DNA of 64,000 bases from Candidatus Nomurabacteria bacterium (GTDB taxonomy: Bacteria; Patescibacteriota; Minisyncoccia; Phycocordibacterales; UBA918), in the NCBI GenBank assembly GCA_023898525.1, contig CP060227.1:11244-75243 (forward strand), read 5' to 3'. The position numbers and the translations under genes are program-made. The notes under the pieces were generated by a model that was given only the letters and a program-made list of their open reading frames with translations, was not told the origin of the DNA and did no database searches. Positions 1 through 56,957 of this stretch are shown piece by piece (the stretch's first letter is position 1; each line of letters begins with the position of its first letter).

Positions 1-3000
1 CTGGTGCTACCGGTAACGCTACTGTGGGTATGAGTGTTAGTGATGGTGCGTCTGGTTTTCAATTTGCTTTGACGCCGGCGTCTATAACTTCAGGAACGAT
101 TATGTCATCAGAAGTTGATTTTGATTGGGTGTCTAATGAAGACGATTGGGGAGATATTAGTTGGAATGTCACTGAGCCGGCAGGAACCGACACATTTTTA
201 AGTGTATATTATTCAAACGCTACTACTTGTGATACTTTGGTTTCTGATGTGGATTTACCTGGTAACAGCGTTGGATTTGATGCGACTTCAACCGGGATGG
301 TTATATCCTCACTCTCCACCTCAACCTATAATCGTATTTGTTTAGAGATGACGCTTGATTTGGGTACGGGTACAACTTCACCAACTTTAAATGATTGGAG
401 TATTAACTGGGATTTGCCAAATCAGGTGCCAAATATACCAGAGTATGATGTTCCACCAGCTTTTGATAACCTTCTGGCTACTTCAACACCTATTTTAGGA
501 GGTTTTGTATCTACTGATTTTGAAAGCGACAACATGGAATACGAGTTCATCTTAGACAATGACTTTGATTTTGGCTCGCCGCTCTTAACTAAACAATCTT
601 CAAATTATCCAACTGACGCCGGTTGGAGCGCTGCCACTTTCGCTTCAGGTGCCACTACCACCTACACCATTCAACCGGCTGACGCTCTAACTGATGGTGT
701 GACGTATTGGTGGAAGGTACGAGCTCGTGATCCGAGTGGGTCTAATGAATGGTCTGATTATTCTGAAGCTAGAAGCGTGACTATCGATATTTCAGTTCTA
801 GAATTAGCTTGGCACCAAACATTGGGATATCAATTTGAAGACGGAGTATTTGATAATGCAGCAACGACAACGGGAGGTGTTTGGCTGGCTTCTACCAGCT
901 CTGCAAGTAGTGTCCCCACCATAGAAAGCTTTACCTCAAACACCGCTCTCACTACTGGAGCTTCTATTACCCTTACCAAACCATCAGGAGTAGAAGTGGG
1001 AGACTTGTTATTAATCATGGTAGGAAATGACGATAATACCGCTACTGCTCAGTGGGATAATGCGACTCTTAAGCCATCTGGTTTTACATTGATAAACGAA
1101 GCTGGAAACGCTACGGCTGATGCACATACAGCTGCTTTCTACAGAATTGCTGACGGTACCGAAGGAGCAACAATCAATGTACCTTCACAAGCTAACGCTG
1201 ATTACTGGGGATACTACGTTCGCGTTTCTGGAGTTGATCAAGTGACTCCAATAAACGTAACCGGAGCAGATTATATGTCTGGTAATAACACCAATCATTC
1301 AGTCACCAGTGTTACTACTGTGACTGACAATTCATTGGCATTTTATCTTTTGGCTGGAGACGGTGGTGATACTTTTCCATTTACAGTTTCCGGTACTGGC
1401 TGGAGTGAAAGTTCAGAAATACAAGCTGGTACCGGCTTTGGTAATGCTGCTGGTGCTTGGGGAACTCGTGATATGACAACTGCTGGTGCTACCGGTAACG
1501 CTACTGTGGGTATGAGTGTTAGTGATGGTGCGTCTGGTTTTCAATTTGCTTTGACGCCGGCGTCTGGTGTAGTGGGGTCTGTGATTTCACCGGAAGTTGA
1601 TTTTGACTGGGTATCTGGACAGACTAATTGGGGTTTAATCGAATGGAATATCACAGAACCAGTTGGGAGTGATACATTGTTACAGGTTTATTATTCCAGC
1701 AGTACTGTTTGTGACACTTTAATACCTGACGGTGATCTTTCTGGAAATGCTGTCGGCTTTGGTATTGATCAAAATAATTTGTTTATTAATTCACTCTCCA
1801 CCTCAACCTATAATCGTATTTGTTTGAGTGTGTCATTTGACCTCGGAGTGGCCGCTAGTTCACCAATTCTTGACGATTGGACTATAAGATGGGTAATACC
1901 AAATCAGGCTCCAAATACACCAACTTTATCGGAGACACCAGCTTTTGATAATTATCGCGCCACTACTACGTTACCAAGTTTAGGAGGTTTTGTATCTACT
2001 GATTTTGAAAGCGACAACATGGAATACGAGTTCATCTTAGACAATGACTTTGATTTTGGCTCGCCGCTCTTAACTAAACAATCTTCAAATTATCCAACTG
2101 ACGCCGGTTGGAGCGCTGCCACTTTCGCTTCAGGTGCCACTACCACCTACACCATTCAACCGGCTGACGCTCTAACTGATGGTGTGACGTATTGGTGGAA
2201 GGTACGAGCTCGTGATCCGAGTGGGTCTAATGAATGGTCTGATTATTCTGAAGCTAGAAGCGTGACTATTAGTACTGCTATTACTATACCAGAGTGGTTT
2301 CAGACCACTGACGATCAATTTGCTTCAAACTTTGCATTAATAAACGCCACTACCAGTGATGGACTTTCTATTGATGCAAGTCCGGTATTGGTAGCAGAGT
2401 TGGATGGTTGGTCGACTGGTAACACAAAAACTATTAGTGATGGTAGTGATAGAGCTTTAATAGTAACTATCATTTCTGAAGATTCTGGAACAAACACAAA
2501 TGTCGATACTGTCACATATGGTGGGCAAACTCTAACTGAGATTGATGATCAGCAAATTGGTACCGGTTTCAGTAATGGAGCTTGGGTTGGTTATTTAGAC
2601 GAAGCTGGTATTCAAGCTGCAGTTGGCACCACTATTACTCCAAGTTGGATTGGTGGTGCACCTGGTAATGGTTTGCAGTACATGTCTGCTGTTTACGAAA
2701 ATGTTAATCAAGATAATCCTGTTCGAGATTATAGTGGTAATGCTTTGACTTCAGGTACTACAATTACTCCAACTGCTTCAATTGATGTTTTTTCCGGTGA
2801 CATGATGATTTATGTAACTGAGACAGAGGATAGTTTAACCCACACTGCCGCCACAGGTTACACTGAAGGAGTAGAGCAGGATACTGGTGGTAATGGGTTT
2901 GTAAACGCCAGTGCTTACAAAGCTATAACTAGTGATGGTAGCGAATACCCTGAAGCCAATTGGTCTGCCTCAGGTAACAGATTATTGATGATAGCTTTTG

Positions 3001-6000
3001 CTTTACAACCAAGTCCAGAAACTGGTTCTGTAATGTCCTCTGAAGTTGATTTTGATTGGGTGCCAAATCAAACTGATTGGGGTGAGGTTATTTGGCATGT
3101 GAATGAGCCGACGGGCACCGAGGTGTTGTTGCGTGTTTACTATTCTAATTCTGCTACTTGTGACACATTGGTACCAGACGGTATTTTAGCAGGTAATTCA
3201 GAGGGAATTGTTTCTGGGGGAAGTCCGCTTGATATTTCAAATCTGTCAACTTCAACCTATAATCGTATTTGTCTAAATGCTACCCTTAGTAAAGGAATAG
3301 CGAGTGTTTCACCAGTCCTTGAGGATTGGGCGGTAAGTTGGGAGAAAAGCCCGATTTATGAGCAAAATGGTTTCTGGTGGTATAATAATACTAATGCTGT
3401 TACGCCAACTGATACTTGGCCACCAGGAGCCACGACCGGGGAGTTGTTACAAAATGAGGTAATTAATAGTACTTATCCAACTAAAACTGGTGATGTGCTA
3501 CGTTTACGTATGGGGGTCGGAGTGACATCAGTGAATTCTTCTGGATCTTCATTTAAATTGCAATATGCTGCTGGAGATATTTGTTCAGAATCATTGGAAT
3601 GGAGTGACGTAGCTCCAATAGGTAGTAGTACAGCATTGTGGAGGGGATACAATAATGTTTCGGTTAGTGACGGAGATACTTTACCAAGTGCTAGCTTGTC
3701 CGCAACAGACAAGTTTGAAACTTATGAAGAAGAAAATGATACATCAGCAATACCTAATGCTATTAATACAGGAGAATACGGAGAATGGGATTGGGTTATA
3801 GAAAACCAAGCTGATTCTGGTACCTCGTATTGTTTCCGTATGGTAACACCTGATGGTAACCGTTTTAAAACCTATACGAATTATCCAAGATTGGTAACCA
3901 ACCAATCTCCGACTGTGGTGTCATACCCTGTACCATTTGATAATGAAAAAATGGCTAGCACTTCGCCCTGGTTTGAATTTACTGGAGTTGATCCGGAAGG
4001 AGAGAATATAGACTATCAGATTCAAATTGATGATGATGTTGACTTTAGCTCACCTGTTGCCGACCACAATTCTGTATCTAATTCAATTTACTTTGAAAAC
4101 CAAGATACGATTTCTGATAAATCACCGTTTAACGATAGTGAGGAAATACGTTACGTAATACCGTCAACTCTTTCAAATGATGTAACTTATTGGTGGAGAG
4201 TCAGAGCTATTGATAGTGAAGCTTCGGCTAATTATGGAGATTGGACAACAGCTAAGAGTTTCACTATTGATACAGGAGTTACAATATCTACTTGGTTTCA
4301 AACCACTGAAGAACAATTTGATACTGACACGTTGGAACAAACAGATGCTACCATATCTGACGATGTTCAGTTAGCGAGTGGACAAAGTTTTGGTACTACA
4401 ACTAGTAGTATGATTGATTTTGATTGGGTAACAATCGGAAATGCTTGGGGTGAATTTTCATTTACTGAGACAGGATCTGCTAATGATATTCTTTATCATA
4501 TAGAATATAATAACGGATCTTCTTGGCAATTAATTCCAGACGCTGATTTAGCGGGGAATGCTTCTGGCTATGATACTTCACCAGTTGATCTGATTGATCT
4601 AGATACTGAGACATATAATCAAATCAGGATTCGTGCTAATTTTGAAAACGGCAGTCCGTCAATTCAGGATTGGACTGTTAATTGGGGGCTTCGAGTTTCG
4701 GTACCAACACATCAACTTTTATTTGATAATGAAAAAACTGGTACTACGTCTCCAACATTTACTTTCTATACCACTGACCCAGAAGGTGATGACTTGGAGT
4801 ATGAATTTTCATGGTCGACTGATGTTACTTTCGCATCTGGTTCTACTACTGTAAATTCCTCTTCTTCACCAGGTTTCGTTAATATCGACAACGGTGCTGA
4901 CACGTCACCTTATTTTACTGGAAATACTATCAGTTACACTATGCAAAGTTCACTAACAGATGGTGTAACTTATTGGTGGCGTACTCGTGCTAAAGATCCG
5001 ACTGGAGGTAATAGCTATTCGTTCTGGTCTGAGCCTTGGAGCTTTACAGTTGATACCACTGCTACCACTTCAACATGGTTTCAGACCACTAAAGAGCAAT
5101 TTGAGACAGACACATTGGCTAGTACTATTGCTTCTACTACTGATTCAATAAGCACTATTCCATCTTCTGTGGTAACTTACAATTTTAATGGAGTTACAAG
5201 TCCGAGCGCTACACATGTCGGGCGGGATTTTGAGGTAGATGTGCTTGATCCAACTGATCCACCAACCGTTGACGCAATAGATACTCTTACTGTGCTTGGT
5301 ACTTCTGCTAGTACTCCAAACTTACGTTCTGGAATCGCTGGTTATGCAAGCGATGCAGAAGCCACAAATGGTCAATATACTTCACTTTCCTCTAGTGATG
5401 ATAATAGATGGACTATTACTGACCCAAACGCTGGTGACAACGCTGTTTTTTGGGCGGAATTTGATATTGCAGAAGATCCAACTAATATAGATCAAATAGA
5501 TATTACACTTGAAGGATTTCAAGGAGCTGCAACCGATGTGGCTTGGCTTGGTATTTGGAGACCAGGAACAACTACTCCGTATTGGCAGGAATTAGATCGT
5601 TTTCAGCAGACCGTTACTGACGGTACTTATACAGGTACTATAACAACTAATATCTCAGAATACTTTGATGGTAACAATAAAATTCATGTAATTTTCTTCA
5701 ATGAAGATGATAATGACTCGCTGTTTGTTGATTATGTGGAAGTGATAATTACTAGTAATAGTGCCAGCTCTGGTTCGGTTATAGGTACACCACTTGACTT
5801 TGATAATGGAAGTGGACCAGCTTGGGGCAGTATGTTTTGGAGTGATAGCGAGCCAGGTAGTAGTTCCTTATATTATCAAGTTGAATATTTGAATGGTATT
5901 GGTGAATGGGAATTGATACCAGATTTAGATTTGTCTGGTAACTCTGCTGGATTTACTACTTCACCAATAGATTTAAAATTACTTAACACTACTACATACA

Positions 6001-9000
6001 ACGAGATTAGACCGGTAGCAAACTTTACCTGTGTAGCTGCTGATTGCCCAACCTTAAACGACTGGACTATAGAATGGTCTCGTGGGTTCACTGTTTCTGG
6101 TACAGCTTATGAGTATGATGGTGTGACTGCCTTAACAACAGGTACTGTAGCGGTAGCAGTAAATGGTGTGTTGCAAACAGGTAAAACTGCAAGTATCTCT
6201 GCAGGTAGTTGGACTATTGATAACGTTACATATTTTGAAGATGATATCGTTACTGTTTTTATAAATGGAGCGACTGATGCTGAAGAAGCGGTTGCGGTAA
6301 CAGCATATGATGGTGTTCCTGATATAACCGGCATGAGATTACAGCAACGACATCTTACAATTGGTTCTGATGATAATGTAGCTATTACTAATGCAAATTT
6401 ACATACTTATGACTTTACTAATGACGAGGATCTTTTCTTTGATGTGGATGGCAGTAATGTGTTGAGTATGTGCGCTGATGTTAGTTGTGAAGATGCAGGT
6501 ATTGTAGTGTTACCAAACAACACCTATAACCCAGGCGCAAATTTAACAACACATGATTTTACCAATGCCGGGACACTAGTGTCAGGAGTGAATACCTTAA
6601 GAGTGTCTGGCTCTTGGGTAAACTCAGCTACCTCCACTATGACTGGCTCAACTGTCATTTTCACCGCTACTTCTACTACTGAAACTATAGATTCAACTGG
6701 TGCGGTCAGTCCAGCGTTTAATAATGTGACATTTGGAGAAACTGCTGGTACTGCTACTTGGACTCTCGGTAGTCTGTTTGATGTTAACGGTGTTTTGACT
6801 ATTGATTATGGTACTTTAAATCGTGGAATAGAAGAAATTTCGGTGGCCGGAAACATTATTACAAATACTAATGGTTATTGGAGCGGTATTGGTACAACTA
6901 CCATTGATGGTACAAATCCAACGACTTGGACAGATAACAATGCTGTTAACCAAAATATAGGGTATGTAGTAGTTGATGGGGTAAGCAAGGTTCTGTTGGC
7001 TGGTAGTAATATAACTATGCAATCTCTAACCATTGAAGCTAATGATATATTTGATTTAAATAACCAAACAGCAACGATAAATGAAGGATGGAATAATCTA
7101 AATACTTTCACTCCGCGGTTGGGAACGATAATATTTGCCGCTACCACAACTAACCATTCAATTACTGTTGGCGGTGATTCATTTTATAACCTTACTTTCA
7201 ATGGTTCGGGTGGTAGTTGGGCGTTTACAGAGCCTGCACTTGTAGTTTCAAATGACTTTACTATCGCAACAGGAACTGTGACTATGCCTACAGCTACAAC
7301 TACAATTTCCGGTTCTTTTGATTCCACAGGCGGAACTTTCGCTCATAATAACGGTGTGATGTATTTTAATTCTGGTTCGGCTGAGACAATTACTTTTGAT
7401 GGTGGTTCGTTCACTAATGCTTCTTACGATTTAACTTTTAATGGAGCTGGAAATTGGACTGTTAATGACGTAAATGCTACCAGCTCAAATGATGTAACAA
7501 TTACTGCTGGAACACTTAATTTTCCTACTGGTGTGTTTTCAATTGGAGGGACGTTAGTTGATACTGGAGGAGTTTATAACGGAGGTAGTGGTACAGTTTT
7601 GTTTTATAGTAGCGCCAGTGAAATTCTGACTGCCGGTGGTTCTGCTTTTAGTAATCTTGAGTTTGATGGAATTGGAAATTGGTCGTTTAGTGACACAAAT
7701 GTTACAGTGTTTGGTGACTTAGTCGTTACTCAAGGAGCTTTAACTTTACCGAACGGTACTTTTAATCTTGGTGGATCGTACACTAATAATAGTACTGTAA
7801 ATCCTGGAACAGGAACTTTGAAATTTAATTCAAACGATATTGGTGAGATATTGAATTTTGGTAGTTCATCACTTTATGATGTTGTTTTTGACAATGTGAC
7901 AGGAGGTTGGACTATTTCCACTCCAGCCACAACCACGAACGATTTTACTTTAACAGATGCTAGTGACTGGACTTTGGCCAGTGGTCAAGTTTTATCGGTT
8001 GGTGGAGTATTTACTAATAATGTCGGTGGTGCCTCGACTACTTGGACAGGTACGACTTTATCGCTTGAAAATGGAAATTATAGTATAAATACTAAATCAG
8101 ACTTAGGGGATAATTATGAAACATTAAGTATTGCTACGAGTACCCATGTTAGAATGTGGAATTCATTGGCTAACTCTCATGTTGTTGACTCCGGTGGTTC
8201 ACTTTATTCACAAGATCACAATTCTGTGGATGGAGATTTGTATATATTTGGAAATTATATAAATACAAATGGCGTGGATTATTGGAGTTATGCCACTGAC
8301 TTTGACGGTGCAGACTTAAGTGGAAGTGAACGTCAGTCAAACGTACGTTTTGCAAATGGTGCAAAAGCAACTTTTGTAAATAGTATAGTAGATATTATTG
8401 GAACAACTTCAGCTTCAACAACGATAGCTAATCAAGGTGCGGGTACATATACGGTTGATTTTAGCGGCGGAACTACTACAGTTCAATATTATGACTTTAC
8501 AGATCTGGGTAGCACTGGTGTTTCATTTTTGGATTCAGTAATCGTTCCTGTTTTAAGAAATGGATCTTATACTGTATCAACACCAGGTGGTTCGGCCATA
8601 ACTCTGTCTTCAACTACAATTGATATCAATCCGGCTAAGCAGGTTTATAATGTTACTTTCGCCACCACGACTCCTATGAGTGGGTATAATATCAGTCAAA
8701 CTGACGGTACTCCTACTTCGTATTGGTGGTTTAGAGAGGGATCAGGTAATCTTAATGGTGAAGCGAATGATAATGATACTGGTGATCCTGGTTCAGTTCG
8801 TTTTGATGATAGTTCACTTACTATTACTGTTGCTGGCGCAGTGTATCAAGATGATGGAATCAGTCCGATTATTGGTGGTACATGTGATGGAGTTACAAAT
8901 AGTGTTCGATTGGTGGTTAATGGAAGTACTACATATGATGGCTCTTGCAGTAATATAGATGGTACATATAGTATTTCTGGTGTGGTGATAGTAGGTGATC

Positions 9001-12000
9001 CAACTTTGACTATTTATCTAAATGATGCATCAGGCGGAGAGAAGGGGTCAGTGATAACCCGAACACCAACATCTGATATTCTGGATCTAGATATATATGC
9101 CAACCGAGTTATTGTTCGTAACGAAGACGTTGATGCTGTAACGATAGCCAATATGGCTACGTACGATTCAGACGATGATATTGATCTAAGTTTCACTGCT
9201 TCCACAGGAACCACTCCTGTGCTTGTAACTAATCAAAATACAGAACTTTATGTTTGGCAAAACAAAACCTTTGTTCCTGGTGGAGCAATTACTCTTAGTG
9301 CAAACAGTCAAGCAAATAGCTATGATGGTTCTTTGGTGTTAGCAACATCATCTACGTTTGTTGCTAACGGTACCAGCACTTATATTATTGGTGGGCGGTT
9401 GGTGCAGGGTAGTGGAGCTTCTTTCGTACCGGCTTCTTCTACTGTCATTATGAATGCAACTACTAGTGGTAAGAGTATTACTGCTAATGAATTGGTCAAT
9501 TTCTACGACCTAACCTTTAGTGGAATAGGTGGTGGTTGGAACATTGGAGCAAATATAGAGGTGGATAATAATATGCTTATTTCCACCGGAACAGTTACTG
9601 GTACTGGAGATATAACTATCTTAAATGGATCGTTGACTGGTGACGGAACTTTGTCATTAGGAGGTGGAACCACCACTATGTCTGTCAGTAACAATTTGGG
9701 TGGTAATACCGCTTGGACTTTCTACAATTTAACTCTCGGTAACGGTCTAGTAGTCGGAACTACTACTCCATTGTTTACAGCTACTACCACAGTGTCAGGT
9801 ACTTTAACAATCGCTAATGCACACTTCTTGGATGCAGGCAGTACGATTTGGGATTTGGCAGGAACAGGTACTGTCTTTACTGGATCTGGAACTTTTATTT
9901 ATGATACTAGTACTGTGCGTTACAGTGGAGCAGGAGCTGATGTAACGTCACTTAATTACTACAATCTTGATATAAATGCTGGATCTGGTTCGCAGACTTA
10001 TACATCTACTGGTCTTGGGATCTCTGTTAATAACAGCTTAACCATCGGTGGAGAAGCTAGTACTACTTTTGACCTAAACACCAATGATGTTGCTGTTGCT
10101 GTTTCTGGTGACGTGGTTATTCAGAACAATGGTTCTTTTATAGCTAGTGATAGTGCATTACTGTCTGTGGCTGGTGATTGGTTAAACTATGGTAGTTTTA
10201 CCCATAACTCAGGTACAGTAACCTTTGATACACCTACTGCTACAAATATAAATGCTGGTTTATCAGCTTTCGGTTCTGTTGATATCAATGGGGTTGGTTC
10301 ATTTACTGTGTTGTCGCACGCTACAGCTACTAATGCTTGGTCACTTTCTAATCATTCTTCATTTACGCTTTCAGGTGGTCAGACTTTAGCAGTGGGTGGA
10401 ATTTTCTCAAATAACCTGGCTGGTGGCGCTACTACTTGGAGTAGTTCTACTTTAGCTTTGTATGGTGGTGGTAATTATGAGATAAATGCTTCGACCACAA
10501 ATGACACATATGGTACATTGGAAGTTAGAGATACAACACAGATTCGAATGTGGAATTCCGATGCTTCTAGTTACGACGTTAATTCAACTGCTTCTTTATA
10601 TTCACAGGATCATGGTAATGTTGATGGAACGTTAAATATTTATGGAACATACTCCAATTCTATACTCGTCGATGAATGGAGTTATACCATTGATTTTGAT
10701 GGTACCGATTTAACTGGCGGAAATGAGCGGCCAGTTACTGTACAATTTGCTTCTGGTTCAGGTGTTGTTTTGTCAGCTGGCGGAACATTAAATGTTATTG
10801 GTAATCCAATTGCTTCAACTACTATCACAAATCAAGGGTCAGGTACGTATGGTATCTCTGTAACTGGCGGTAGTACAAATTGGTCTTACTACGAGTTGCG
10901 TAACTTAAATGCCACAGGTCTTTCGTTTTCAGGAACTCCAACAGTAACCACATTATCTAATGGAGATATTGAATTAGCTGTAACTGGTGGTACAGGAATT
11001 TCTGTAACTGATTCTGTTATAGATAATAATCCAGCTAAGACCTTTACTGGAAATAGATTTGCTCTTGGCGCTGCAGCTACAGGTTTTAATGTGACTGCGA
11101 CTGGTACTTCAGTAAGCTCTTGGCGCTTTACTAATCACTTTGGTGGCTATGATGGTGAATCTTTTGATAATGATCCTGACGGTGATCCGGGGTATATAGT
11201 CTGGGATGATTCAGCTGCCTTAATCACAATATCTGGAAAGGTTTATAGTGATGAAGGTTCTACCATATCCACTATTTGTGATGGAAGTACTACCAATATT
11301 TCTCTGGAAGTGGCTGGTTTAACAAATTACCTTGCAAGTTGCGATTCCGGTACTGGTTCTTATAGTATTACTAACGTAGCTTACAGTCCTGGAGATTCAT
11401 TTGTAGTTTATATTGATGGAGAATCTGCTAAAGCTGCTACTGTAAGTTCCGCTCCAATTTCTAGTATTGGCAACTTTAATCTCTATGAAAATAGAGTAAT
11501 TGTGCGACACGAGGGTGTTGATCCTTTGACCATTGATGATATGTCAGTATGGGATTCTTCTGATGATCCTGATATACCATTTACAGCGATCAGTAGTAGT
11601 CCAGACACTCTTGATTTGCCAGCTAACTATAAATTGATAGTTTGGACAGGAAAGACTTTTACTCCCGAAGGTGATGTGACCATTGCTGGGGGTGGAGCTG
11701 GTCAACCTTATGATGGAACTTTGGAATTATATGCTAATTCAGTCTTTGATTCAGGAACCGGCAATACACACACTATCGGAGGTAGTTTTGTTGCTAGTTC
11801 AACAGCGACCTTTAATGCCGGTACTTCCAATATAATTTTGACTACTACTGGTAGTAATCGTTCTGTGTTAGTTAATGAAAACCCTTTCTTTAATTTAACC
11901 TTCAACGGAAGTGGTAGTTGGTATATTATTGACCCTAATATTTATGTCAATAACGATGTAACTATTACTAGTGGTGTAGTTACTATGCCGATTGCCACCA

Positions 12001-15000
12001 GTACTTTTGCAGGTTCGTTTGAAAATAATGGTGGAAGCTTTGTCGCGAGTGCAGTCTCCTTGTTCACAAGTACTTCATCAGGTAAAAATATTAGATTTGG
12101 CGGTTCTAGTTTTACTAAAATGCAGTTTACTGGTTTTGGTGATTGGACCATTATCGATACAGATGCTACATCAACTGGTTCAATAATTAAAACTGATGGC
12201 GCGCTTACTTTGCCGTCAGGTCAGTTTGCTGTTGGTGCAGATTTTCTAAATGAATCGGGTAGTATTGATCATAATAATGGTGAGCTTGTATTATTCAGTA
12301 CTAGCTCAAATATGCTTCAGGCAACAGGTTCAGACTTATACGCAGTCACGTTTGCCGGTAATGGAAACTATACTATACTTGATACAAACTTAACTTTAAT
12401 AGAATCGTTAACGATTTCAACTGGAACAGTCACTTTCGCTTCAGGAACTTTGTCGATCGGTGGGTCGTTTGATGCTAGCGGTGGTTTATTCAATAATTCA
12501 ACTGGAACTGTGTTGTTGAACAGTACTACAACTGGAAGAATTATTGATCCAGGAACTAGTGCGTTCTATGATCTGCAAATAGGCGCTCCAGCTGGAGGAT
12601 ATACGTTAATAGCTTCTGCAACCACCACGAATAATTTCACTATTGCTTCAGTTGGTAATTTTGTTACCCAAAGTAGTCCTACCATATATGTGGGTGGGGT
12701 GTTCACGAATAGTGTGGGTGGAGGAGCGACTGATTGGGTGGGGAGTACTTTATATCTGGATGGTCAAAGTGCTTATACTATTAACACAAAAGCAGTTGGT
12801 GGTGATAATTATAATGTGTTGAATATTGGTGTTAATAGCGATATAAGAATGTGGAATTCTGCAGCTACTACTACACAAATAGATACAAACGCTTCCTTGT
12901 ATTCACAAGATCATAATGTTGTGGATGGGGATCTGTATATTTATGGTGATTTTACTATTGCTACTACTACTGAGTATTGGAATTACGCGACTGATTTTGA
13001 TGGTACTGATATTTCTGGTTTTGAGCGTCAAGTAAATGTTCATCAAGCTACAAATTCAACCACTACACTACAAAGTGGAACCCTTAATGTTGTTGGAGTG
13101 AATGGTAATAAAACTAATATAACCAATCAGGGAAGTGGTACATATGCCTTTGATTTAACCGGCGGTACATTTAATGCTTTATACTATGCTTTTAGCAATC
13201 TTGATGTTAACGGTTTAAATATTTCAGGTACGCCAACTCTTACTTCTCTCTCGAATGGTGATTTTGAATTAGCTGTAAATGGAGGTACTTTAATTAAAGT
13301 AACCGATCAAGCATTAAATGCTAATGCTTCAAAAGTTGTTACTGGTAATAGTTTTTCTACTACGACCGCGATCGCTGGAGCGAATGTGACTTTAGTTGGG
13401 TCGACAACCAACGTGTGGACATTTGTCAGTCATACCGGAAACTTAGATGGTGAAGATTTTGATGTAGATGATGGTACAGAGTGTGGATCTATACGGTGGA
13501 GTAACAGTTCGTGCCTTTTGACGCAACAAACAAATTTCCGTTGGCGAAGCGATGACGGAGGAGCGCAGGTTCCAGACAATGAATGGTTTGATGTTAATTG
13601 GAATGCTCGCAAACAAGTTCGTATTAAGAATGTTGATCCAGCTACTTACACCGATGCCGCTATACAAATTTTTGTAGCTTATGACACTGATATGCAAGCT
13701 GACTTTGATGACCTTAGATTTACTGATAGTACCGGAATAAGTGAGATACCTTATTGGTTAGGTTCGACTACTAATGCTGTGGCTGCAGAGGTATGGGTAA
13801 AGGTGCCAAGTTTAACCGCCAATGAAACTACATCAGTTTTCATGTATTACAATAATCCAACTGCCACATCTACTAGTTCAAGTACCCAGGTATTTATAGC
13901 CACGGATGACTTTGAAGATAATAATATTTCTGAATACAGCGGTCAAACAAGTCTATTTGGAACCGGAACTAGCTATAATTATGATGGAACATATGGCCTA
14001 GATAATCTAGGGAATGAGTCTGGTCGTGCTAACCTTGGTGGTATTTATAGATTTGATCAAACTGTAAGTCAAGGTGAAACTTTCAGATATTTACAATATA
14101 TTGATACATCAGCTGGTTCTGGAGATGAGGTTTGTACTATGTTTGGTGTTCAGTCACCTGGTTCAACTAACCAAAATTACGCAGTTTGTTTGGAACAATT
14201 TGGTATTGATAGAGTGTCTTTGGTGAAAGATGTGGTTGATAATGATAGTTCAGGTACGATTCTAGCCTCGTCTACTATTACATATTCAACTGGTTGGTAT
14301 GAAGTGGAAATTGATTGGGGAACCGATAATAATATTTTTGTTTCTTTGTATGATTCTGCCAACACTTTAGTAGCTACAACATCAGTAACTGATAGTACTT
14401 ATACGTCTGGTGGTTATGGTTTTACTTATTGGTTCCACAATGGTGGATGGGATAGTATCAGTTCACGTCCAACTTTAACAAACGAGCCAACTATTTATTT
14501 TGGAGTTGAACAAGTTGATGGTGGTGCGACTTGGGAGGCTGCGCAAAATAGTCCTACATCATTTAATGTTAGTGATGTTGCTCGACTTAGAATATCAATT
14601 GATAATACCGGTTTACCTATTACAAACCAACAATTTTTGCTTGAGTACGCACCGCTTGGTGTAGCTCCAAGTTGTGAAGCTGTCGCTTCAATTGGTTACT
14701 CATCTGTTCCATCGCAAGCTAGCTGTGGAACATCCCCAGTCTGTATGCAAAGTTCAACACATATTACAAATGGTGAATCTACAGTTGATTTGCTAACAAA
14801 TGTAAGTGGAATATTTGTTCCAGGAGAAGTGAGAGAAGATCCGACGAATATTACCAGTAATCTAGATGTTGACCAAAATGAATATGTAGAGTTGGAGTAT
14901 GTTATTATACCGACCAATAATGTGGTTGATGAGAACTTATGTTTTAGAGTAACAAATAATGGTGTTGATTTGGATACATATTTAAGTGTTGCAGAACTTC

Positions 15001-15803
15001 AATTAAAATTTGACCCGACTTTTGGAGCGGTGAATTTAAATAGCGGTCTTGATATTAGTTTAACTTCAGGAACTACTACTTTAGTTTATGCAACTGGGAC
15101 AGTGACTGATCTTAATGGTTATAGCGACTTAACTAATGCTACAGCCACTATCTACCGCAGTGGTGCTGGAGCAAGTTGTACAGCTAACAACAATAATTGC
15201 TACATATTAAGTACCGAGAATAATACTTGTAGCTTTACTGACTGTTCCGGTAATAGTTGTACTCTGTCTTGTGTCGCTGATATGCAGTTCCATGCTGATC
15301 CAACCGACGCTGATACCTATGAAGGAGAAGAATGGTTGGCTTATTTGGAGGCAGAAGATTCAGTTGGGGGTTATGATTTTGCCTCTGCGCCAGGAGTTGA
15401 ACTTCTGACCTTGCGGGCCCTGGCGGTAGACTCAAGCATAGACTATGGGTCCCTGACCCCTAACTCTGACACTGGTAGTTTTAACCCGACCACTACTGTG
15501 ACGAATCTTGGTAATGCACCGATTGATGTTGATGTTACAGGCAGCGATATGACTGGCGGATTATCTTCAACCATTCCGGCTGATCAGCAAAAAGTAGCCA
15601 CCTCCACCTTTACTTACAGTGCATGCCCAACTTGCCAGCAGTTGTCGTCGACTACTCCGGTGACACTTGATTTAAATATGTCAAAACCAGCTACCACTAC
15701 ACCACCGGTAGAGTCTGATGTGTACTGGGGAATAAATGTACCGTTCACCACCGGCAACTCAGCTCACTCCGGAGTTAACCTTTTCACGGCTATTGGTATT
15801 TAG
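1..15803 (+). CDS. Giant secreted/surface protein, 5'-partial (more than 5,259 aa in the window). It contains repeated 'SSEVDFDWV...STYNRICL' beta-sandwich modules, FN3-like 'VTYWWKVRARD' modules and three ~790-aa superrepeats of ~40-aa 'NLTFNGSGxW' beta-helix-like units. A DUF2341-like plus LamG-like region follows, and it ends in a '...VYWGINVP...LFTAIGI' tail.
   Basis: An uninterrupted frame runs from window position 3 to the stop at 15803. The frame is open to the window edge, and the first residues (GATGNATVGMSVSDGASGFQ) recur at 1483, so the gene starts upstream. I read the domain motifs directly from the translation. Confidence 0.85.
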   Translation, partial: GATGNATVGMSVSDGASGFQFALTPASITSGTIMSSEVDFDWVSNEDDWGDISWNVTEPAGTDTFLSVYYSNATTCDTLVSDVDLPGNSVGFDATSTGMVISSLSTSTYNRICLEMTLDLGTGTTSPTLNDWSINWDLPNQVPNIPEYDVPPAFDNLLATSTPILGGFVSTDFESDNMEYEFILDNDFDFGSPLLTKQSSNYPTDAGWSAATFASGATTTYTIQPADALTDGVTYWWKVRARDPSGSNEWSDYSEARSVTIDISVLELAWHQTLGYQFEDGVFDNAATTTGGVWLASTSSASSVPTIESFTSNTALTTGASITLTKPSGVEVGDLLLIMVGNDDNTATAQWDNATLKPSGFTLINEAGNATADAHTAAFYRIADGTEGATINVPSQANADYWGYYVRVSGVDQVTPINVTGADYMSGNNTNHSVTSVTTVTDNSLAFYLLAGDGGDTFPFTVSGTGWSESSEIQAGTGFGNAAGAWGTRDMTTAGATGNATVGMSVSDGASGFQFALTPASGVVGSVISPEVDFDWVSGQTNWGLIEWNITEPVGSDTLLQVYYSSSTVCDTLIPDGDLSGNAVGFGIDQNNLFINSLSTSTYNRICLSVSFDLGVAASSPILDDWTIRWVIPNQAPNTPTLSETPAFDNYRATTTLPSLGGFVSTDFESDNMEYEFILDNDFDFGSPLLTKQSSNYPTDAGWSAATFASGATTTYTIQPADALTDGVTYWWKVRARDPSGSNEWSDYSEARSVTISTAITIPEWFQTTDDQFASNFALINATTSDGLSIDASPVLVAELDGWSTGNTKTISDGSDRALIVTIISEDSGTNTNVDTVTYGGQTLTEIDDQQIGTGFSNGAWVGYLDEAGIQAAVGTTITPSWIGGAPGNGLQYMSAVYENVNQDNPVRDYSGNALTSGTTITPTASIDVFSGDMMIYVTETEDSLTHTAATGYTEGVEQDTGGNGFVNASAYKAITSDGSEYPEANWSASGNRLLMIAFALQPSPETGSVMSSEVDFDWVPNQTDWGEVIWHVNEPTGTEVLLRVYYSNSATCDTLVPDGILAGNSEGIVSGGSPLDISNLSTSTYNRICLNATLSKGIASVSPVLEDWAVSWEKSPIYEQNGFWWYNNTNAVTPTDTWPPGATTGELLQNEVINSTYPTKTGDVLRLRMGVGVTSVNSSGSSFKLQYAAGDICSESLEWSDVAPIGSSTALWRGYNNVSVSDGDTLPSASLSATDKFETYEEENDTSAIPNAINTGEYGEWDWVIENQADSGTSYCFRMVTPDGNRFKTYTNYPRLVTNQSPTVVSYPVPFDNEKMASTSPWFEFTGVDPEGENIDYQIQIDDDVDFSSPVADHNSVSNSIYFENQDTISDKSPFNDSEEIRYVIPSTLSNDVTYWWRVRAIDSEASANYGDWTTAKSFTIDTGVTISTWFQTTEEQFDTDTLEQTDATISDDVQLASGQSFGTTTSSMIDFDWVTIGNAWGEFSFTETGSANDILYHIEYNNGSSWQLIPDADLAGNASGYDTSPVDLIDLDTETYNQIRIRANFENGSPSIQDWTVNWGLRVSVPTHQLLFDNEKTGTTSPTFTFYTTDPEGDDLEYEFSWSTDVTFASGSTTVNSSSSPGFVNIDNGADTSPYFTGNTISYTMQSSLTDGVTYWWRTRAKDPTGGNSYSFWSEPWSFTVDTTATTSTWFQTTKEQFETDTLASTIASTTDSISTIPSSVVTYNFNGVTSPSATHVGRDFEVDVLDPTDPPTVDAIDTLTVLGTSASTPNLRSGIAGYASDAEATNGQYTSLSSSDDNRWTITDPNAGDNAVFWAEFDIAEDPTNIDQIDITLEGFQGAATDVAWLGIWRPGTTTPYWQELDRFQQTVTDGTYTGTITTNISEYFDGNNKIHVIFFNEDDNDSLFVDYVEVIITSNSASSGSVIGTPLDFDNGSGPAWGSMFWSDSEPGSSSLYYQVEYLNGIGEWELIPDLDLSGNSAGFTTSPIDLKLLNTTTYNEIRPVANFTCVAADCPTLNDWTIEWSRGFTVSGTAYEYDGVTALTTGTVAVAVNGVLQTGKTASISAGSWTIDNVTYFEDDIVTVFINGATDAEEAVAVTAYDGVPDITGMRLQQRHLTIGSDDNVAITNANLHTYDFTNDEDLFFDVDGSNVLSMCADVSCEDAGIVVLPNNTYNPGANLTTHDFTNAGTLVSGVNTLRVSGSWVNSATSTMTGSTVIFTATSTTETIDSTGAVSPAFNNVTFGETAGTATWTLGSLFDVNGVLTIDYGTLNRGIEEISVAGNIITNTNGYWSGIGTTTIDGTNPTTWTDNNAVNQNIGYVVVDGVSKVLLAGSNITMQSLTIEANDIFDLNNQTATINEGWNNLNTFTPRLGTIIFAATTTNHSITVGGDSFYNLTFNGSGGSWAFTEPALVVSNDFTIATGTVTMPTATTTISGSFDSTGGTFAHNNGVMYFNSGSAETITFDGGSFTNASYDLTFNGAGNWTVNDVNATSSNDVTITAGTLNFPTGVFSIGGTLVDTGGVYNGGSGTVLFYSSASEILTAGGSAFSNLEFDGIGNWSFSDTNVTVFGDLVVTQGALTLPNGTFNLGGSYTNNSTVNPGTGTLKFNSNDIGEILNFGSSSLYDVVFDNVTGGWTISTPATTTNDFTLTDASDWTLASGQVLSVGGVFTNNVGGASTTWTGTTLSLENGNYSINTKSDLGDNYETLSIATSTHVRMWNSLANSHVVDSGGSLYSQDHNSVDGDLYIFGNYINTNGVDYWSYATDFDGADLSGSERQSNVRFANGAKATFVNSIVDIIGTTSASTTIANQGAGTYTVDFSGGTTTVQYYDFTDLGSTGVSFLDSVIVPVLRNGSYTVSTPGGSAITLSSTTIDINPAKQVYNVTFATTTPMSGYNISQTDGTPTSYWWFREGSGNLNGEANDNDTGDPGSVRFDDSSLTITVAGAVYQDDGISPIIGGTCDGVTNSVRLVVNGSTTYDGSCSNIDGTYSISGVVIVGDPTLTIYLNDASGGEKGSVITRTPTSDILDLDIYANRVIVRNEDVDAVTIANMATYDSDDDIDLSFTASTGTTPVLVTNQNTELYVWQNKTFVPGGAITLSANSQANSYDGSLVLATSSTFVANGTSTYIIGGRLVQGSGASFVPASSTVIMNATTSGKSITANELVNFYDLTFSGIGGGWNIGANIEVDNNMLISTGTVTGTGDITILNGSLTGDGTLSLGGGTTTMSVSNNLGGNTAWTFYNLTLGNGLVVGTTTPLFTATTTVSGTLTIANAHFLDAGSTIWDLAGTGTVFTGSGTFIYDTSTVRYSGAGADVTSLNYYNLDINAGSGSQTYTSTGLGISVNNSLTIGGEASTTFDLNTNDVAVAVSGDVVIQNNGSFIASDSALLSVAGDWLNYGSFTHNSGTVTFDTPTATNINAGLSAFGSVDINGVGSFTVLSHATATNAWSLSNHSSFTLSGGQTLAVGGIFSNNLAGGATTWSSSTLALYGGGNYEINASTTNDTYGTLEVRDTTQIRMWNSDASSYDVNSTASLYSQDHGNVDGTLNIYGTYSNSILVDEWSYTIDFDGTDLTGGNERPVTVQFASGSGVVLSAGGTLNVIGNPIASTTITNQGSGTYGISVTGGSTNWSYYELRNLNATGLSFSGTPTVTTLSNGDIELAVTGGTGISVTDSVIDNNPAKTFTGNRFALGAAATGFNVTATGTSVSSWRFTNHFGGYDGESFDNDPDGDPGYIVWDDSAALITISGKVYSDEGSTISTICDGSTTNISLEVAGLTNYLASCDSGTGSYSITNVAYSPGDSFVVYIDGESAKAATVSSAPISSIGNFNLYENRVIVRHEGVDPLTIDDMSVWDSSDDPDIPFTAISSSPDTLDLPANYKLIVWTGKTFTPEGDVTIAGGGAGQPYDGTLELYANSVFDSGTGNTHTIGGSFVASSTATFNAGTSNIILTTTGSNRSVLVNENPFFNLTFNGSGSWYIIDPNIYVNNDVTITSGVVTMPIATSTFAGSFENNGGSFVASAVSLFTSTSSGKNIRFGGSSFTKMQFTGFGDWTIIDTDATSTGSIIKTDGALTLPSGQFAVGADFLNESGSIDHNNGELVLFSTSSNMLQATGSDLYAVTFAGNGNYTILDTNLTLIESLTISTGTVTFASGTLSIGGSFDASGGLFNNSTGTVLLNSTTTGRIIDPGTSAFYDLQIGAPAGGYTLIASATTTNNFTIASVGNFVTQSSPTIYVGGVFTNSVGGGATDWVGSTLYLDGQSAYTINTKAVGGDNYNVLNIGVNSDIRMWNSAATTTQIDTNASLYSQDHNVVDGDLYIYGDFTIATTTEYWNYATDFDGTDISGFERQVNVHQATNSTTTLQSGTLNVVGVNGNKTNITNQGSGTYAFDLTGGTFNALYYAFSNLDVNGLNISGTPTLTSLSNGDFELAVNGGTLIKVTDQALNANASKVVTGNSFSTTTAIAGANVTLVGSTTNVWTFVSHTGNLDGEDFDVDDGTECGSIRWSNSSCLLTQQTNFRWRSDDGGAQVPDNEWFDVNWNARKQVRIKNVDPATYTDAAIQIFVAYDTDMQADFDDLRFTDSTGISEIPYWLGSTTNAVAAEVWVKVPSLTANETTSVFMYYNNPTATSTSSSTQVFIATDDFEDNNISEYSGQTSLFGTGTSYNYDGTYGLDNLGNESGRANLGGIYRFDQTVSQGETFRYLQYIDTSAGSGDEVCTMFGVQSPGSTNQNYAVCLEQFGIDRVSLVKDVVDNDSSGTILASSTITYSTGWYEVEIDWGTDNNIFVSLYDSANTLVATTSVTDSTYTSGGYGFTYWFHNGGWDSISSRPTLTNEPTIYFGVEQVDGGATWEAAQNSPTSFNVSDVARLRISIDNTGLPITNQQFLLEYAPLGVAPSCEAVASIGYSSVPSQASCGTSPVCMQSSTHITNGESTVDLLTNVSGIFVPGEVREDPTNITSNLDVDQNEYVELEYVIIPTNNVVDENLCFRVTNNGVDLDTYLSVAELQLKFDPTFGAVNLNSGLDISLTSGTTTLVYATGTVTDLNGYSDLTNATATIYRSGAGASCTANNNNCYILSTENNTCSFTDCSGNSCTLSCVADMQFHADPTDADTYEGEEWLAYLEAEDSVGGYDFASAPGVELLTLRALAVDSSIDYGSLTPNSDTGSFNPTTTVTNLGNAPIDVDVTGSDMTGGLSSTIPADQQKVATSTFTYSACPTCQQLSSTTPVTLDLNMSKPATTTPPVESDVYWGINVPFTTGNSAHSGVNLFTAIGI

Positions 15804-15822
15804 AGTTAGTCTAAGGAATGAT

Positions 15823-17349
15823 ATGATTAGTTTAATGTACAAATCTAAGGAAAAGTTCTTTGTCACATTCCTGGCTTTAGCTATGGTATTCACTTTTATA
15901 CCTCCTACTTTTCTTTCTTATGCACAGAATAATGATAAAGAACCTCCGCAAATATCGAATGTTGAAGTGGCTGATGTGACTGATAGTGAGATTACTATTA
16001 CCTGGGAAACTGATGAAAACGCTGATTCAGCTGTAAACTTTGGTCTCCAGCCTGATTTGGGTATAGTTCGTATACCGGTGCCTGATCGAACCAAACATTC
16101 AATTACCTTGCAAAACCTAGAGTCTGGTAGAGTTTACTATTTTCGTGTAGTTTCTGCTGATGATAACGGTAACCAAGGGATTTCAGCTGATTATAAGATT
16201 CAGACTAGCGGTAAGCCAGAAATAGGTTCAGCGGAGGGAAGTGGCAAAGCTGATACTGAATTCACTACCAACAATCCTCCAGCTAAGGAAACTAGTACTC
16301 AAGAAATAATTAATCAGATAAATCAAATTACCGACCCACTTCAGCTACAAGAAATTGTAAATGAAGTAGTAAAGGCCATTCAGGGTATCACCGAAGATCT
16401 TACTATTGTTGGTCCGCCAACAGTAATTCCAGAAACAACCAGTGCATTGGTTAGGTGGACTACTGACCGTGAGTCCACCTCTGAGGTATTGTTTTCACCT
16501 AAGAAAGGATTTGATGGCCTAAACTATGCCTATTCTCAAGCATCTACTGATGCGCCCACAACTGAGCATGAGATTAGATTGATTGGTCTAGATCCATTCA
16601 CGGACTATAATTTTAAGGTCAAGTCGGAAGATAGCTACGGAATTATTGGTGAAAGTAGAAATTTTACTTTTAAGACCAAAGCTTCATTGCCAGAAATTAA
16701 GAATCTGCGCGTAGTTAAGGTGGAGGAGAACGCCGCTACTTTAGCCTGGGATACGACTGTACCAGCTAAGGCGTTGGTGGAATACCAAGACCAAACTACC
16801 GGTGAACAAAATTCTGTCGGTAGACCAACTTTGACCACCTCTCACCAGATGCGCTTAGCAGACCTTACTTTGGGTTCGCGGTACGTGGCTTATGTAATCT
16901 CAGAAAACTCCGGTGGCGATCGGGTACGGAGTCAGCCAATTCAGTTTGTGACCATGCGGGACATTGCCGCTCCAATCATTTCAAACGTAACTAATGAGTC
17001 AACTCTTTTTCCGGGTGGAGAATCCAGAATACAGACGATCGTTGAGTGGGTGACTGACGAACCGGCCGACTGTGTTATGACTTACCGTGAAGGGGTAGCC
17101 GGTGGTACCGAACCGACTGTACGAGAAAAAGAACAGGCTGAGTACGAAGTTCAACACGTAGAGGTGGTCGTGGACTTTGCACCGGCTACCGTCTATCAGT
17201 TTTGGCTTAATTGTGCTGATGAGGCAGGTAATGATGTACAATCTGAAAATTTTGTACTCTTCACACCAATTCAAGAGAAAAATATCATTGACTTAATTAT
17301 CGAAAACTTCCAGAGTACCTTCGGTTGGGTTAAGAATATTGGTGGGTAA
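15823..17349 (+). CDS. Signal-anchored protein with four FN3-like (purple-acid-phosphatase-N-like) domains.
   Basis: The start at MISLMYKSKEKFF is followed by a hydrophobic segment. There are four repeats of the pattern 'I..W.T.......V.Y.........Y.F.V.S.D..GN'. I moved the start to the internal ATG at 15823 to avoid overlap with the giant gene. Confidence 0.6.
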   Translation: MISLMYKSKEKFFVTFLALAMVFTFIPPTFLSYAQNNDKEPPQISNVEVADVTDSEITITWETDENADSAVNFGLQPDLGIVRIPVPDRTKHSITLQNLESGRVYYFRVVSADDNGNQGISADYKIQTSGKPEIGSAEGSGKADTEFTTNNPPAKETSTQEIINQINQITDPLQLQEIVNEVVKAIQGITEDLTIVGPPTVIPETTSALVRWTTDRESTSEVLFSPKKGFDGLNYAYSQASTDAPTTEHEIRLIGLDPFTDYNFKVKSEDSYGIIGESRNFTFKTKASLPEIKNLRVVKVEENAATLAWDTTVPAKALVEYQDQTTGEQNSVGRPTLTTSHQMRLADLTLGSRYVAYVISENSGGDRVRSQPIQFVTMRDIAAPIISNVTNESTLFPGGESRIQTIVEWVTDEPADCVMTYREGVAGGTEPTVREKEQAEYEVQHVEVVVDFAPATVYQFWLNCADEAGNDVQSENFVLFTPIQEKNIIDLIIENFQSTFGWVKNIGG

Positions 17350-17479: not shown

Positions 17480-18802
17480 ATGGCGAAACCGCTGATTGTT
17501 TGTCGTGACCTATCGATTATTTACAACAAAGGAAAGTCAAATGAATTTAAGGCTCTGACCGGGGTAAATACAGATATTTATGAAGGTGAATACATCATCT
17601 TGTTTGGTGCGTCTGGTTCTGGTAAATCTACTCTAATGTATTCCATCCAAGGCTCTTTACCCCCGGGAGAGGGTACGTTATTGATACGCGGAGATGATAT
17701 ATATTCTTATCCACCAGAAGACCGTGTGTATTTTCAGCGTTACGTAATGGGTATTATATTTCAATCCTTCAACTTGATTCCCTCGCTTTCAGTCTTAGAC
17801 AATGTGGCTCTGCCAATGATCTTTTGTGATGCTGACAAAGCCAGTCGCGAGCGGCGAGCTCAATCGTTACTAGATCGCTTTGGGGTTGGACATGTCTCCC
17901 ACAAAGTACCAGCCATGCTTTCTGGTGGTCAGCAGCAGCGTGTGTCAGTGGCACGGTCTATGGTTAATGATCCAAAAATTCTTTTGGCAGATGAGCCGAC
18001 TGGTAACCTAGACTCAGTTTCAACTCAGCAAGTGATGGATAAGATAGACGAAATTAACACATTTGATCGCCGCACGGTAATTATGGTGTCACACAACGCG
18101 GCACACCTAAGCTACGCTCATCGTGTGTACTATTTAAAGGATGGCCATATTGTGCGAGAGGTGGTAAATCCTCAACGTAAGCAAATAAAACCTGTGAAGG
18201 AAGGGGAGACGATAGTGACTGAGCTTGAGCAGTTGGCTAGACTTTTTCCTTATGACTCGGTTGATACCCTTCGAGTAAAAAGTATGGTTAATTTTTTGAC
18301 TCAGTCACTTACGTATGACCAGCTTATCCGATTGGAGCGGGCCATAGTCTTGTTTATTAAAGGTAAGCTTGATAAAAGAGCTTTCATTAAAGGTCTCATT
18401 GAAACAGAGGAAAATGGTGGGGTAGAGGTGTCATTAGCAGAAGCCAAAAGAATGGCTTCAGTAGCTGAAAAACTAATTACTCAGTCGGACGACATTAGAC
18501 GCTTTAGAGCAAAAAAAGATAATGCTGACATTTTCTTCAGTCAACACCAGCTGGCTGAGCGTTTACGAGACCATTTAATCGGCACATTTAAGATTAAGCT
18601 AAACAAGGATCAAAACAACAACCTAGTTGAATTAATTGCTGATCGGGTGACTGGTGTAATAGAAGAAGCAGAATTTAATGAATACCTGAGTAAAAGTATT
18701 CGTAATGATGGGTTGAGTTTAGATTCAAAGGAAGCCGATGAACTGACACGTTATTTTGAAAAACTAATTGCCCAGGGAGTCGATGTGAGTTATAAGAGTT
18801 AG
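17480..18802 (+). CDS. ABC transporter ATP-binding protein of the MacB/LolD/FtsE class, with an unusual ~210-aa helical C-terminal extension.
   Basis: Walker A GASGSGKST, Q-loop, signature LSGGQQQRV, Walker B LLADEPTGNLD and the H-loop are all present. Residues ~230-440 have no ABC homology. Confidence 0.85.
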   Translation: MAKPLIVCRDLSIIYNKGKSNEFKALTGVNTDIYEGEYIILFGASGSGKSTLMYSIQGSLPPGEGTLLIRGDDIYSYPPEDRVYFQRYVMGIIFQSFNLIPSLSVLDNVALPMIFCDADKASRERRAQSLLDRFGVGHVSHKVPAMLSGGQQQRVSVARSMVNDPKILLADEPTGNLDSVSTQQVMDKIDEINTFDRRTVIMVSHNAAHLSYAHRVYYLKDGHIVREVVNPQRKQIKPVKEGETIVTELEQLARLFPYDSVDTLRVKSMVNFLTQSLTYDQLIRLERAIVLFIKGKLDKRAFIKGLIETEENGGVEVSLAEAKRMASVAEKLITQSDDIRRFRAKKDNADIFFSQHQLAERLRDHLIGTFKIKLNKDQNNNLVELIADRVTGVIEEAEFNEYLSKSIRNDGLSLDSKEADELTRYFEKLIAQGVDVSYKS

Positions 18803-19050
18803 TGAGTACAACTTGAGATTTATAACAACTTTTGATGTTACTATAATTATAGTCGCTAGACACTTTGTTTAAATGGTTTGTTCAGGAAAGGTTTGGTTGG
18901 TGTTACGATTTGGAATATTATAATTATAAGTTTGTAGAGATGTTTTAATTTTTTGCGTGCGTTCGACCACAAGCGTCCAGCAATTTTCTCAGGGAAAGAA
19001 AAAATTGGGACGTAAATTCAGAATAGTCGCTACGCTCGTTTCTTCATTTA

Positions 19051-24567: not shown

Positions 24568-24605
24568 TGTTCATCGTATGAACATTTTGTTCATCTGAAT
24601 GAACA
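24568..24605 (+). promoter_or_regulatory. Tandem palindromic operator-like sites: TGTTCAT-cgt-ATGAACA and TGTTCAT-ctga-ATGAACA.
   Basis: Two perfect 7-bp inverted repeats share the same half-site and sit 3 bp apart, about 60-90 bp upstream of the 24660 start. Confidence 0.45.
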
Positions 24606-24659
24606 TGAAGTCGCGGCATGTCGAGTTCAGACTGCAGACTAAAATACAACGTAGAGCAT

Positions 24660-49589: not shown

Positions 49590-49661
49590 CTGTCAATTAG
49601 TAACTATATGCCTACTCATTGTATGTAATAATAAGTACTGAACCTTAAAACATAAACACTC

Positions 49662-50504: not shown

Positions 50505-50539
50505 GTAAACACACTGGTTCAAGCTAGTATAATGACACC

Positions 50540-54260: not shown

Positions 54261-54315
54261 ACCCACTTTGCACACATTCATAAAATCGTTATACTGGGAT
54301 ACTTAGCGTATATTT

Positions 54316-56955: not shown

Positions 56956-56957
56956 AC

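Follow-up and report, generated by a model that had tools for sequence, protein, structure and literature searches.

Patches of perfect DNA identity between diverged tandem units of a giant Patescibacteria gene, a probable trace of recent intragenic gene conversion

How can two neighboring repeats of one gene be saturated with silent differences over most of their length and still be identical, letter for letter, in patches? The question is raised by a stretch of 64,000 nt from Candidatus Nomurabacteria bacterium (GenBank assembly GCA_023898525.1, contig CP060227.1, positions 11,244 to 75,243 of the forward strand; hereafter the window), which starts inside a giant open reading frame (ORF) for a putative cell-surface protein, so that the lengths given below for this ORF and for the first identical tract are minima. 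An earlier note on this DNA had described three patches of perfect identity between adjacent units of about 495 codons, and exact-match scans of the window confirmed all three. The note had also proposed recent gene conversion or recombination as their cause, possibly as a means of varying a surface protein, with a collapsed-repeat assembly artefact as the alternative. We find gene conversion well supported for the two longer tracts (291 and 83 nt), given the contrast in age between the tracts and their surroundings, their sharp edges, their discordant ancestry, and the lack of homogenization in homologues, and unconvincing for the third, which is 35 nt long. Overall, the mosaic was probably produced by recent intragenic gene conversion between the anciently diverged units 1 and 2.

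The tracts were located with a repeat scan and an exact-diagonal scan, complemented by a k-mer scan over the whole window. Their positions in the window, and the modules of the encoded protein in which they lie, are the following.

1 to 83, + strand: identical tract 1, copy a, at the end of module C0; 83 nt, offset 1482, left side cut by the window edge
1483 to 1565, + strand: identical tract 1, copy b, at the end of module C1; 83 nt
309 to 343, + strand: identical tract 2, copy a, in module A1; 35 nt, offset 1482
1791 to 1825, + strand: identical tract 2, copy b, in module A2; 35 nt
494 to 784, + strand: identical tract 3, copy a, core of the FN3-like module B1 (probable recipient); 291 nt, offset 1485
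1979 to 2269, + strand: identical tract 3, copy b, core of the FN3-like module B2 (probable donor); 291 nt

For the second tract, the earlier note had given 309-346 and 1791-1828; the identical stretch is real, but it ends at 343 and 1825 and measures 35 rather than 38 nt. Apart from these three pairs, the k-mer scan found no exact direct repeat of 22 nt or more anywhere in the window. In 20,000 shuffles of the 178 discordant sites among 827 aligned sites, no identical run was longer than 61 nt, and the permutation P value was below 5e-5 for both the 291-nt and the 83-nt tracts. The longest tract showed 0 differences in 291 positions, which places the 95% upper bound of its divergence at about 1%.

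The surroundings of the tracts are far older. Module borders were derived by BLAST of segments of the giant protein against the giant protein itself, and the visible 5' part of the gene proved to be a series of units of about 495 codons, each consisting of a module A that models as a β-sandwich, an FN3-like module B, and a variable module C. In amino acid coordinates, the end of C0 covers residues 1-27, followed by A1 (28-140), B1 (141-262), C1 (263-521), A2 (522-634), B2 (635-756), C2 (757-1004), and A3 (1005-1114); beyond A3 lie B3, A4, B4, and A5, with other inserts between them. The ORF and its first modules are placed in the window as listed here.

3 to 15803, + strand: giant ORF for the putative cell-surface protein with the repeats; frame 3, at least 5,266 codons, 5' end upstream of the window
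84 to 422, + strand: module A1, β-sandwich with the motifs EVDFDWV ... STYNRICL ... DW.I.W; modeled with a predicted local distance difference test score (pLDDT) of about 70-85
423 to 788, + strand: module B1, FN3-like; first strand and linker (423-493) diverged from B2
789 to 1565, + strand: module C1, variable β-rich domain; the C1 type recurs in the Patescibacteria proteins P0002-P0006 with 46-57% identity
1566 to 1904, + strand: module A2
1905 to 2270, + strand: module B2, FN3-like
2271 to 3014, + strand: module C2, a different variant of the variable domain from C1 (about 40% DNA identity), with the last C domain of the TARA protein P0001 as its orthologue
3015 to 3344, + strand: module A3, third A copy, without a long identical tract

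In a codon-based alignment, A1 and A2 were 63% identical in DNA and 57% in protein, with a proportion of synonymous differences (pS) of 0.64 and a synonymous divergence (dS) of 1.41. The three modules A1, A2, and A3 were equidistant (dS about 1.36-1.41), and with silent sites saturated in this way the units must be regarded as old duplicates. C1 and C2 shared only about 36-50% of their DNA and about 20-35% of their protein sequence and, as judged from these values, are effectively different domain variants. For the C modules, identity is thus far lower than the value of about 60% at the protein level that the earlier note had given for the sequence between the tracts. Set against this background, the homogenization of the FN3 core is younger than the unit duplication by a factor of at least about 100.

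The tracts also have abrupt edges, where identity falls from 100% to near-random values at 83/84 and at 784/785. Tract 1 translates as GATGNATVGMSVSDGASGFQFALTPAS and comprises the last two β-strands of the modeled C domain; its right edge lies exactly at the junction between modules C and A (…TPAS followed by ITSG… in one copy and by GVVG… in the other). The left edge of the 291-nt tract (nt 494) directly follows a one-codon indel and a diverged stretch, at which the offset shifts from 1482 to 1485, and its right edge (nt 784) corresponds to residue 121 of the FN3 model, in the last strand. Beyond nt 784 the identity is near random because C1 and C2 are different variants. The tracts thus stop where homology runs out, either at an indel and diverged stretch or at junctions with diverged modules, and for this reason they roughly coincide with protein modules.

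How closely the longest tract matches a module was examined with structure predictions. A four-module model (A1-B1-C1-A2) had a pLDDT of 65.7 and left B unresolved, and Foldseek matches of this model were generic jelly rolls; module B was then modeled alone, which gave a seven-stranded AlphaFold model (pLDDT 74.7, predicted template modeling score 0.70). Foldseek searches with this model returned mostly FN3 domains as top PDB matches (cytokine receptors, neogenin, and myomesin) with probabilities of 0.95-1.0, though E values were only 2e-3 to 2e-2. A PDB profile search yielded weak FN3 matches (E 0.05-0.2), and Pfam assigned PF25788 (Ig_Rha78A_N) to the module with 30.7 bits against a cut-off of 27.4. 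With its predicted seven-stranded β-sandwich and its similarity to FN3, module B appears to adopt an FN3-like or Ig-like fold. The earlier note had stated that the longest tract, given as 290 bp, encodes exactly one such module. The tract does end at the module end, but it corresponds to model residues 25-121, that is, to strands 2-7 of 7, and does not include the diverged first strand and linker (aa 141-164).

Comparison with related proteins provided further evidence for a recent event. The closest protein, P0001 from TARA Oceans, was 64% identical, within a range of 48-64% for the closest homologues overall, and no strain variants were found. P0001 contains three FN3 modules, with 57-64% identity between their cores, and the three FN3 cores of the L003 protein are 36-40% identical to each other; the L003 contig lacks any exact repeat longer than 31 nt. 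Since the homologues carry no homogenized FN3 cores, homogenization must be recent and specific to this lineage. The cores of B1 and B2 are identical in 96 of 96 amino acids and 291 of 291 nucleotides and share 58-73% identity with the TARA and L003 modules; judged by sequence, these paralogous cores are closer to each other than to the orthologous segments of relatives. L003 itself (JGI contig Ga0210019_1000627, 167-18361) encodes a complete homologue of 6,064 aa in which A, B, and C1-type modules follow a different order, which shows that modules have been shuffled within the family. In the matching frame of L004 (Ga0210014_1004850), 7 stops occur.

The relatives also suggest in which direction the copying went. 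The last unit of P0001 (A-B_c-C2-like-A) can be assigned as the orthologue of unit 2 by its C2-type domain and the linker …PEWFQTTD.QF…. For the core common to B1 and B2, identity is highest with the TARA module B_c (73%) and amounts to 58-64% with the other modules. The C-terminal (downstream) flank of B_c, in turn, is 65% identical to the flank of B2 and 38% identical to that of B1, while the nearest relatives of the B1 downstream flank are L003 B_a (50%) and TARA B_a/B_b (42%). Tract and flanks thus appear phylogenetically discordant, with a modest effect size. As the common core is of the unit 2 type, it was probably copied from B2 into B1, which we regard as a conclusion of moderate strength.

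Taken together, the data are best explained by homologous recombination without crossover, in which short stretches of one unit were recently copied onto the homologous stretch of the other. Most likely, non-reciprocal recombination of the RecA type between misaligned neighboring units generated the two module-sized conversion tracts. In one event, the B1 core was probably overwritten by the B2 core over 291 nt; in a second event, at least the last 83 nt of the C module of the preceding unit were probably made identical to the end of C1. If heteroduplex extension set the limits of conversion, tract ends would be expected at just such positions, where homology runs out. As direct repeats about 1.48 kb apart, the tracts (291 nt and at least 83 nt) would be long enough for the in-frame loss or gain of units or for the formation of hybrids such as A1-B-C2.

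Several points weigh against this reading. The first concerns the 35-nt tract, which encodes SLSTSTYNRIC, the most conserved motif of module A across homologues. A plain shuffle gave a P value of about 1e-4 for this tract; given the conserved amino acids (50% identical codons elsewhere in A1/A2), the value for its 11 consecutive identical codons was about 5e-4 per position and about 0.03 after correction. The same stretch shares 28 of 35 nt with A3 and 24 of 35 nt with L003 and L004. It may be a short conversion patch or plain conservation; conservation alone can explain it, and its identity is not clearly more than conservation would give. The assignment of B2 as the donor depends on a difference of 9 residues in 96. 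The phylogeny of the A modules is star-like, with 55-61% identity all round, and hence provides neither positional orthology with the TARA protein nor a check on the order of A1 and A2. The mosaic was read from an assembled sequence, with the assembly taken on trust, and it might be the decaying edge of a larger homogenized array instead of the outcome of two discrete events.

The last of these points belongs to an explanation that we consider unlikely, in which the donor was external (a paralogous giant gene in the genome or DNA of a related strain) or the window holds the edge of a larger upstream array homogenized by unequal crossing-over. Tract 1 runs off the window, and more near-identical units may therefore lie upstream. 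Module order differs among homologues, with B-C-A combinations and C-domain types varying in P0001-P0006 and L003, and module shuffling has therefore happened in the family. Against an external source, no other copy of A, B, or C was found elsewhere in the 64-kb window. Since sequences fit to be donor and recipient lie only 1,485 nt from each other, an intragenic event is the most parsimonious explanation, and a donor from outside that matched the resident copy exactly would have to be assumed in addition.

An assembly or polishing artefact seems improbable to us. In that case, cores and C ends that are similar but not identical, or those of other strains or paralogues, would have been collapsed or chimerically threaded. 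The source is a metagenome-assembled genome (MAG) in a single contig of 1,087,875 bp, and the 291-nt exact repeat exceeds the k-mers of short reads, so that a de Bruijn graph would leave the order of A1 and A2 ambiguous if the repeat were bridged by neither read pairs nor long reads. In addition, the giant protein is missing from the protein collection although its neighbors are present there, and the Logan assemblies of SRR12358675 and SRR12358676, which contain the same organism, are fragmented around the giant gene. However, collapse is unable to create identity from DNA that is about 60% identical, and the tracts begin and end abruptly and in frame. As A1 is distinct from A2 and C1 from C2, and each of them must border on a copy of a tract, any path through the graph would need at least two copies, which makes a simple one-copy collapse unlikely. 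Tandem units with different C domains are also found in the TARA homologue, which was assembled independently. Bubble-popping could at most lift an identity of about 95-99% to 100%, a level that would still imply recent homogenization. What an artefact could possibly account for is such rounding up or a swap in the order of A1 and A2.

A maintained architecture, in place of a side effect of occasional conversion, is a similarly remote prospect. The invariant tracts (C end and FN3 core) between the diverged modules A1, C1, A2, and C2 would then be the constant parts of a constant/variable arrangement and would serve as in-frame recombination joints for the deletion, duplication, and recombination of units. 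If this were true, such joints would let an episymbiont of the candidate phyla radiation (CPR) vary the length and the module combination of a giant host-attachment protein at the population level.

Least credible of all is selection on the sequence itself (a codon or nucleic-acid constraint or an embedded RNA or regulatory element) or hypermutation of the diverged parts by a diversity-generating retroelement (DGR) after a recent duplication: selection and chance can explain the 35-nt tract, which coincides with the most conserved family motif, but purifying selection on the protein cannot fix about 70 synonymous sites next to regions with a dS of 1.4. An embedded RNA or mobile element was rejected, as Rfam gave no match on either strand of 1-3400 (E ≤ 0.1), no notable inverted repeats occurred in the tracts, and the longest tract encodes, in frame, an FN3 core that has homologues in relatives. 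The DGR was rejected as well. The mismatches between A1 and A2 (base in copy 1: A 43, C 25, G 34, T 38) were commonest at third codon positions, as in ordinary divergence, and showed no adenine bias, which argues against a DGR; no reverse-transcriptase domain was detected among the ORFs scanned against Pfam.

Gene conversion between units 1 and 2, our preferred explanation, has parallels in known systems. Repeats of bacterial surface proteins have been documented to share high DNA identity and to recombine within the gene, and such recombination was proposed to cause the repeat-number variation of Periscope proteins (PMC8201768). Concerted evolution of prokaryotic paralogues has likewise been documented (PMC6053082). 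Like the Periscope proteins SasG, Rib/alpha-C, and Sgo_0707, the giant protein carries tandem repeats of globular domains in a very large, presumably surface-exposed chain. With Periscope proteins and cases of concerted evolution it shares identity at the DNA level, including synonymous sites, and direct repeats long enough for RecA-dependent recombination; as in concerted evolution, identity is higher between paralogous repeats than with the orthologous repeats of relatives. Periscope proteins, however, have whole repeats that are near-identical along a long array and vary in copy number between strains. Here, identity is confined to two patches (291 nt and at least 83 nt) in otherwise saturated units with different C domains, and the host is a CPR bacterium. 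In the visible part of the gene, whole repeats do not appear near-identical, with 57% protein identity for A and about 25% for C.

Antigenic variation by gene conversion from cassettes is known from pilE/pilS of Neisseria, vlsE of Borrelia, mgpB/MgPar of Mycoplasma genitalium, and tprK of Treponema. As in those systems, short tracts appear to have been copied segmentally and non-reciprocally into an expressed surface-protein gene, which yields sharp-edged mosaics. Cassette systems differ in that silent donors outside the expressed gene generate diversity, whereas donor and recipient in this case are neighboring modules of one ORF and the event lowered diversity. No silent donor copies were observed in the 64 kb, where tblastn with A1, B1, and C1 and the exact-repeat scan found copies only inside the giant ORF. 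DGRs are common in CPR genomes, and the repeat pair resembles them in lying in a CPR surface-protein gene and in combining an identical with a variable part; it departs from them in the absence of adenine-specific mismatches and of a reverse-transcriptase domain. Gene conversion in repetitive bacterial surface genes is well known, and the present case adds an instance from a giant CPR gene without introducing a new principle.

The reading frame of the giant ORF is intact throughout. Pfam recognized Ig_Rha78A_N and DUF2341 in the giant protein and left the remainder of its 5,266 aa almost without coverage; the DUF2341 domain (window 13701-13928, E 1.5e-18) lies near the C-terminal part. The N-terminus is outside the window, and the L003 homologue starts with a hydrophobic signal- or anchor-like sequence. 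Based on this N-terminus and on the content of Ig, FN3, and β-sandwich domains, the giant protein is probably a cell-surface protein. Three further repeats of about 800 aa were observed in the ORF at window 6993-13523 (aa 2331-3130, 3140-3926, and 3906-4507). In contrast to units 1 and 2, these share 36-39% protein identity and no exact DNA tract of 20 nt or more.

The remaining window resembles an ordinary bacterial chromosome, with an ABC transporter, tgt, uvrA/B/C, ddl, and tRNA-Ala. Its UvrB shares 100% identity with USN87845.1 from a Candidatus Nomurabacteria MAG. All 33 ORFs of at least 150 aa lie on the + strand, and the cumulative GC skew rises to about 34 kb and then falls. Directly downstream of the giant gene, an ORF at 15736-17349 encodes several FN3 and purple-acid-phosphatase-N-like domains. 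As listed, it overlaps the end of the giant gene by 68 nt; its exact product is not on record, and the ORF therefore probably starts further downstream than listed. Next comes a MacB-type ABC transporter pair (17480-20259). A 369-aa protein (23246-24355) combines DUF4215, a Big_6 Ig domain, and a type I dockerin, the latter being unexpected in a CPR genome; its Gly/Ser-rich linker is encoded by a tandem repeat at 23583-23633 (15 nt, 3.4 copies). Just upstream of an ORF starting at 24618, an intergenic 21-nt unit is repeated 1.9 times (24568-24606) with the palindrome TGTTCAT..ATGAACA and could be a candidate operator site. A second very large ORF of 2,050 aa (32369-38521) had no Pfam match, and a cluster of uvrB, uvrA, and uvrC (47541-58193) is interrupted by genes for a response regulator, a Big_13/TSP3 surface-type protein, and a histidine kinase.

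Exact repeats of such length (291 nt and at least 83 nt) are prone to misassembly and to the in-frame gain and loss of units, so that a long-read check of the length and module order of this gene in MAGs is advisable. If the mosaic is real, homologous recombination acts within giant surface-protein genes of CPR bacteria, a group of uncultured organisms with small genomes whose surface biology and recombination capacity are poorly known. Module-sized conversion tracts would then offer a cheap marker of ongoing recombination in unculturable lineages.

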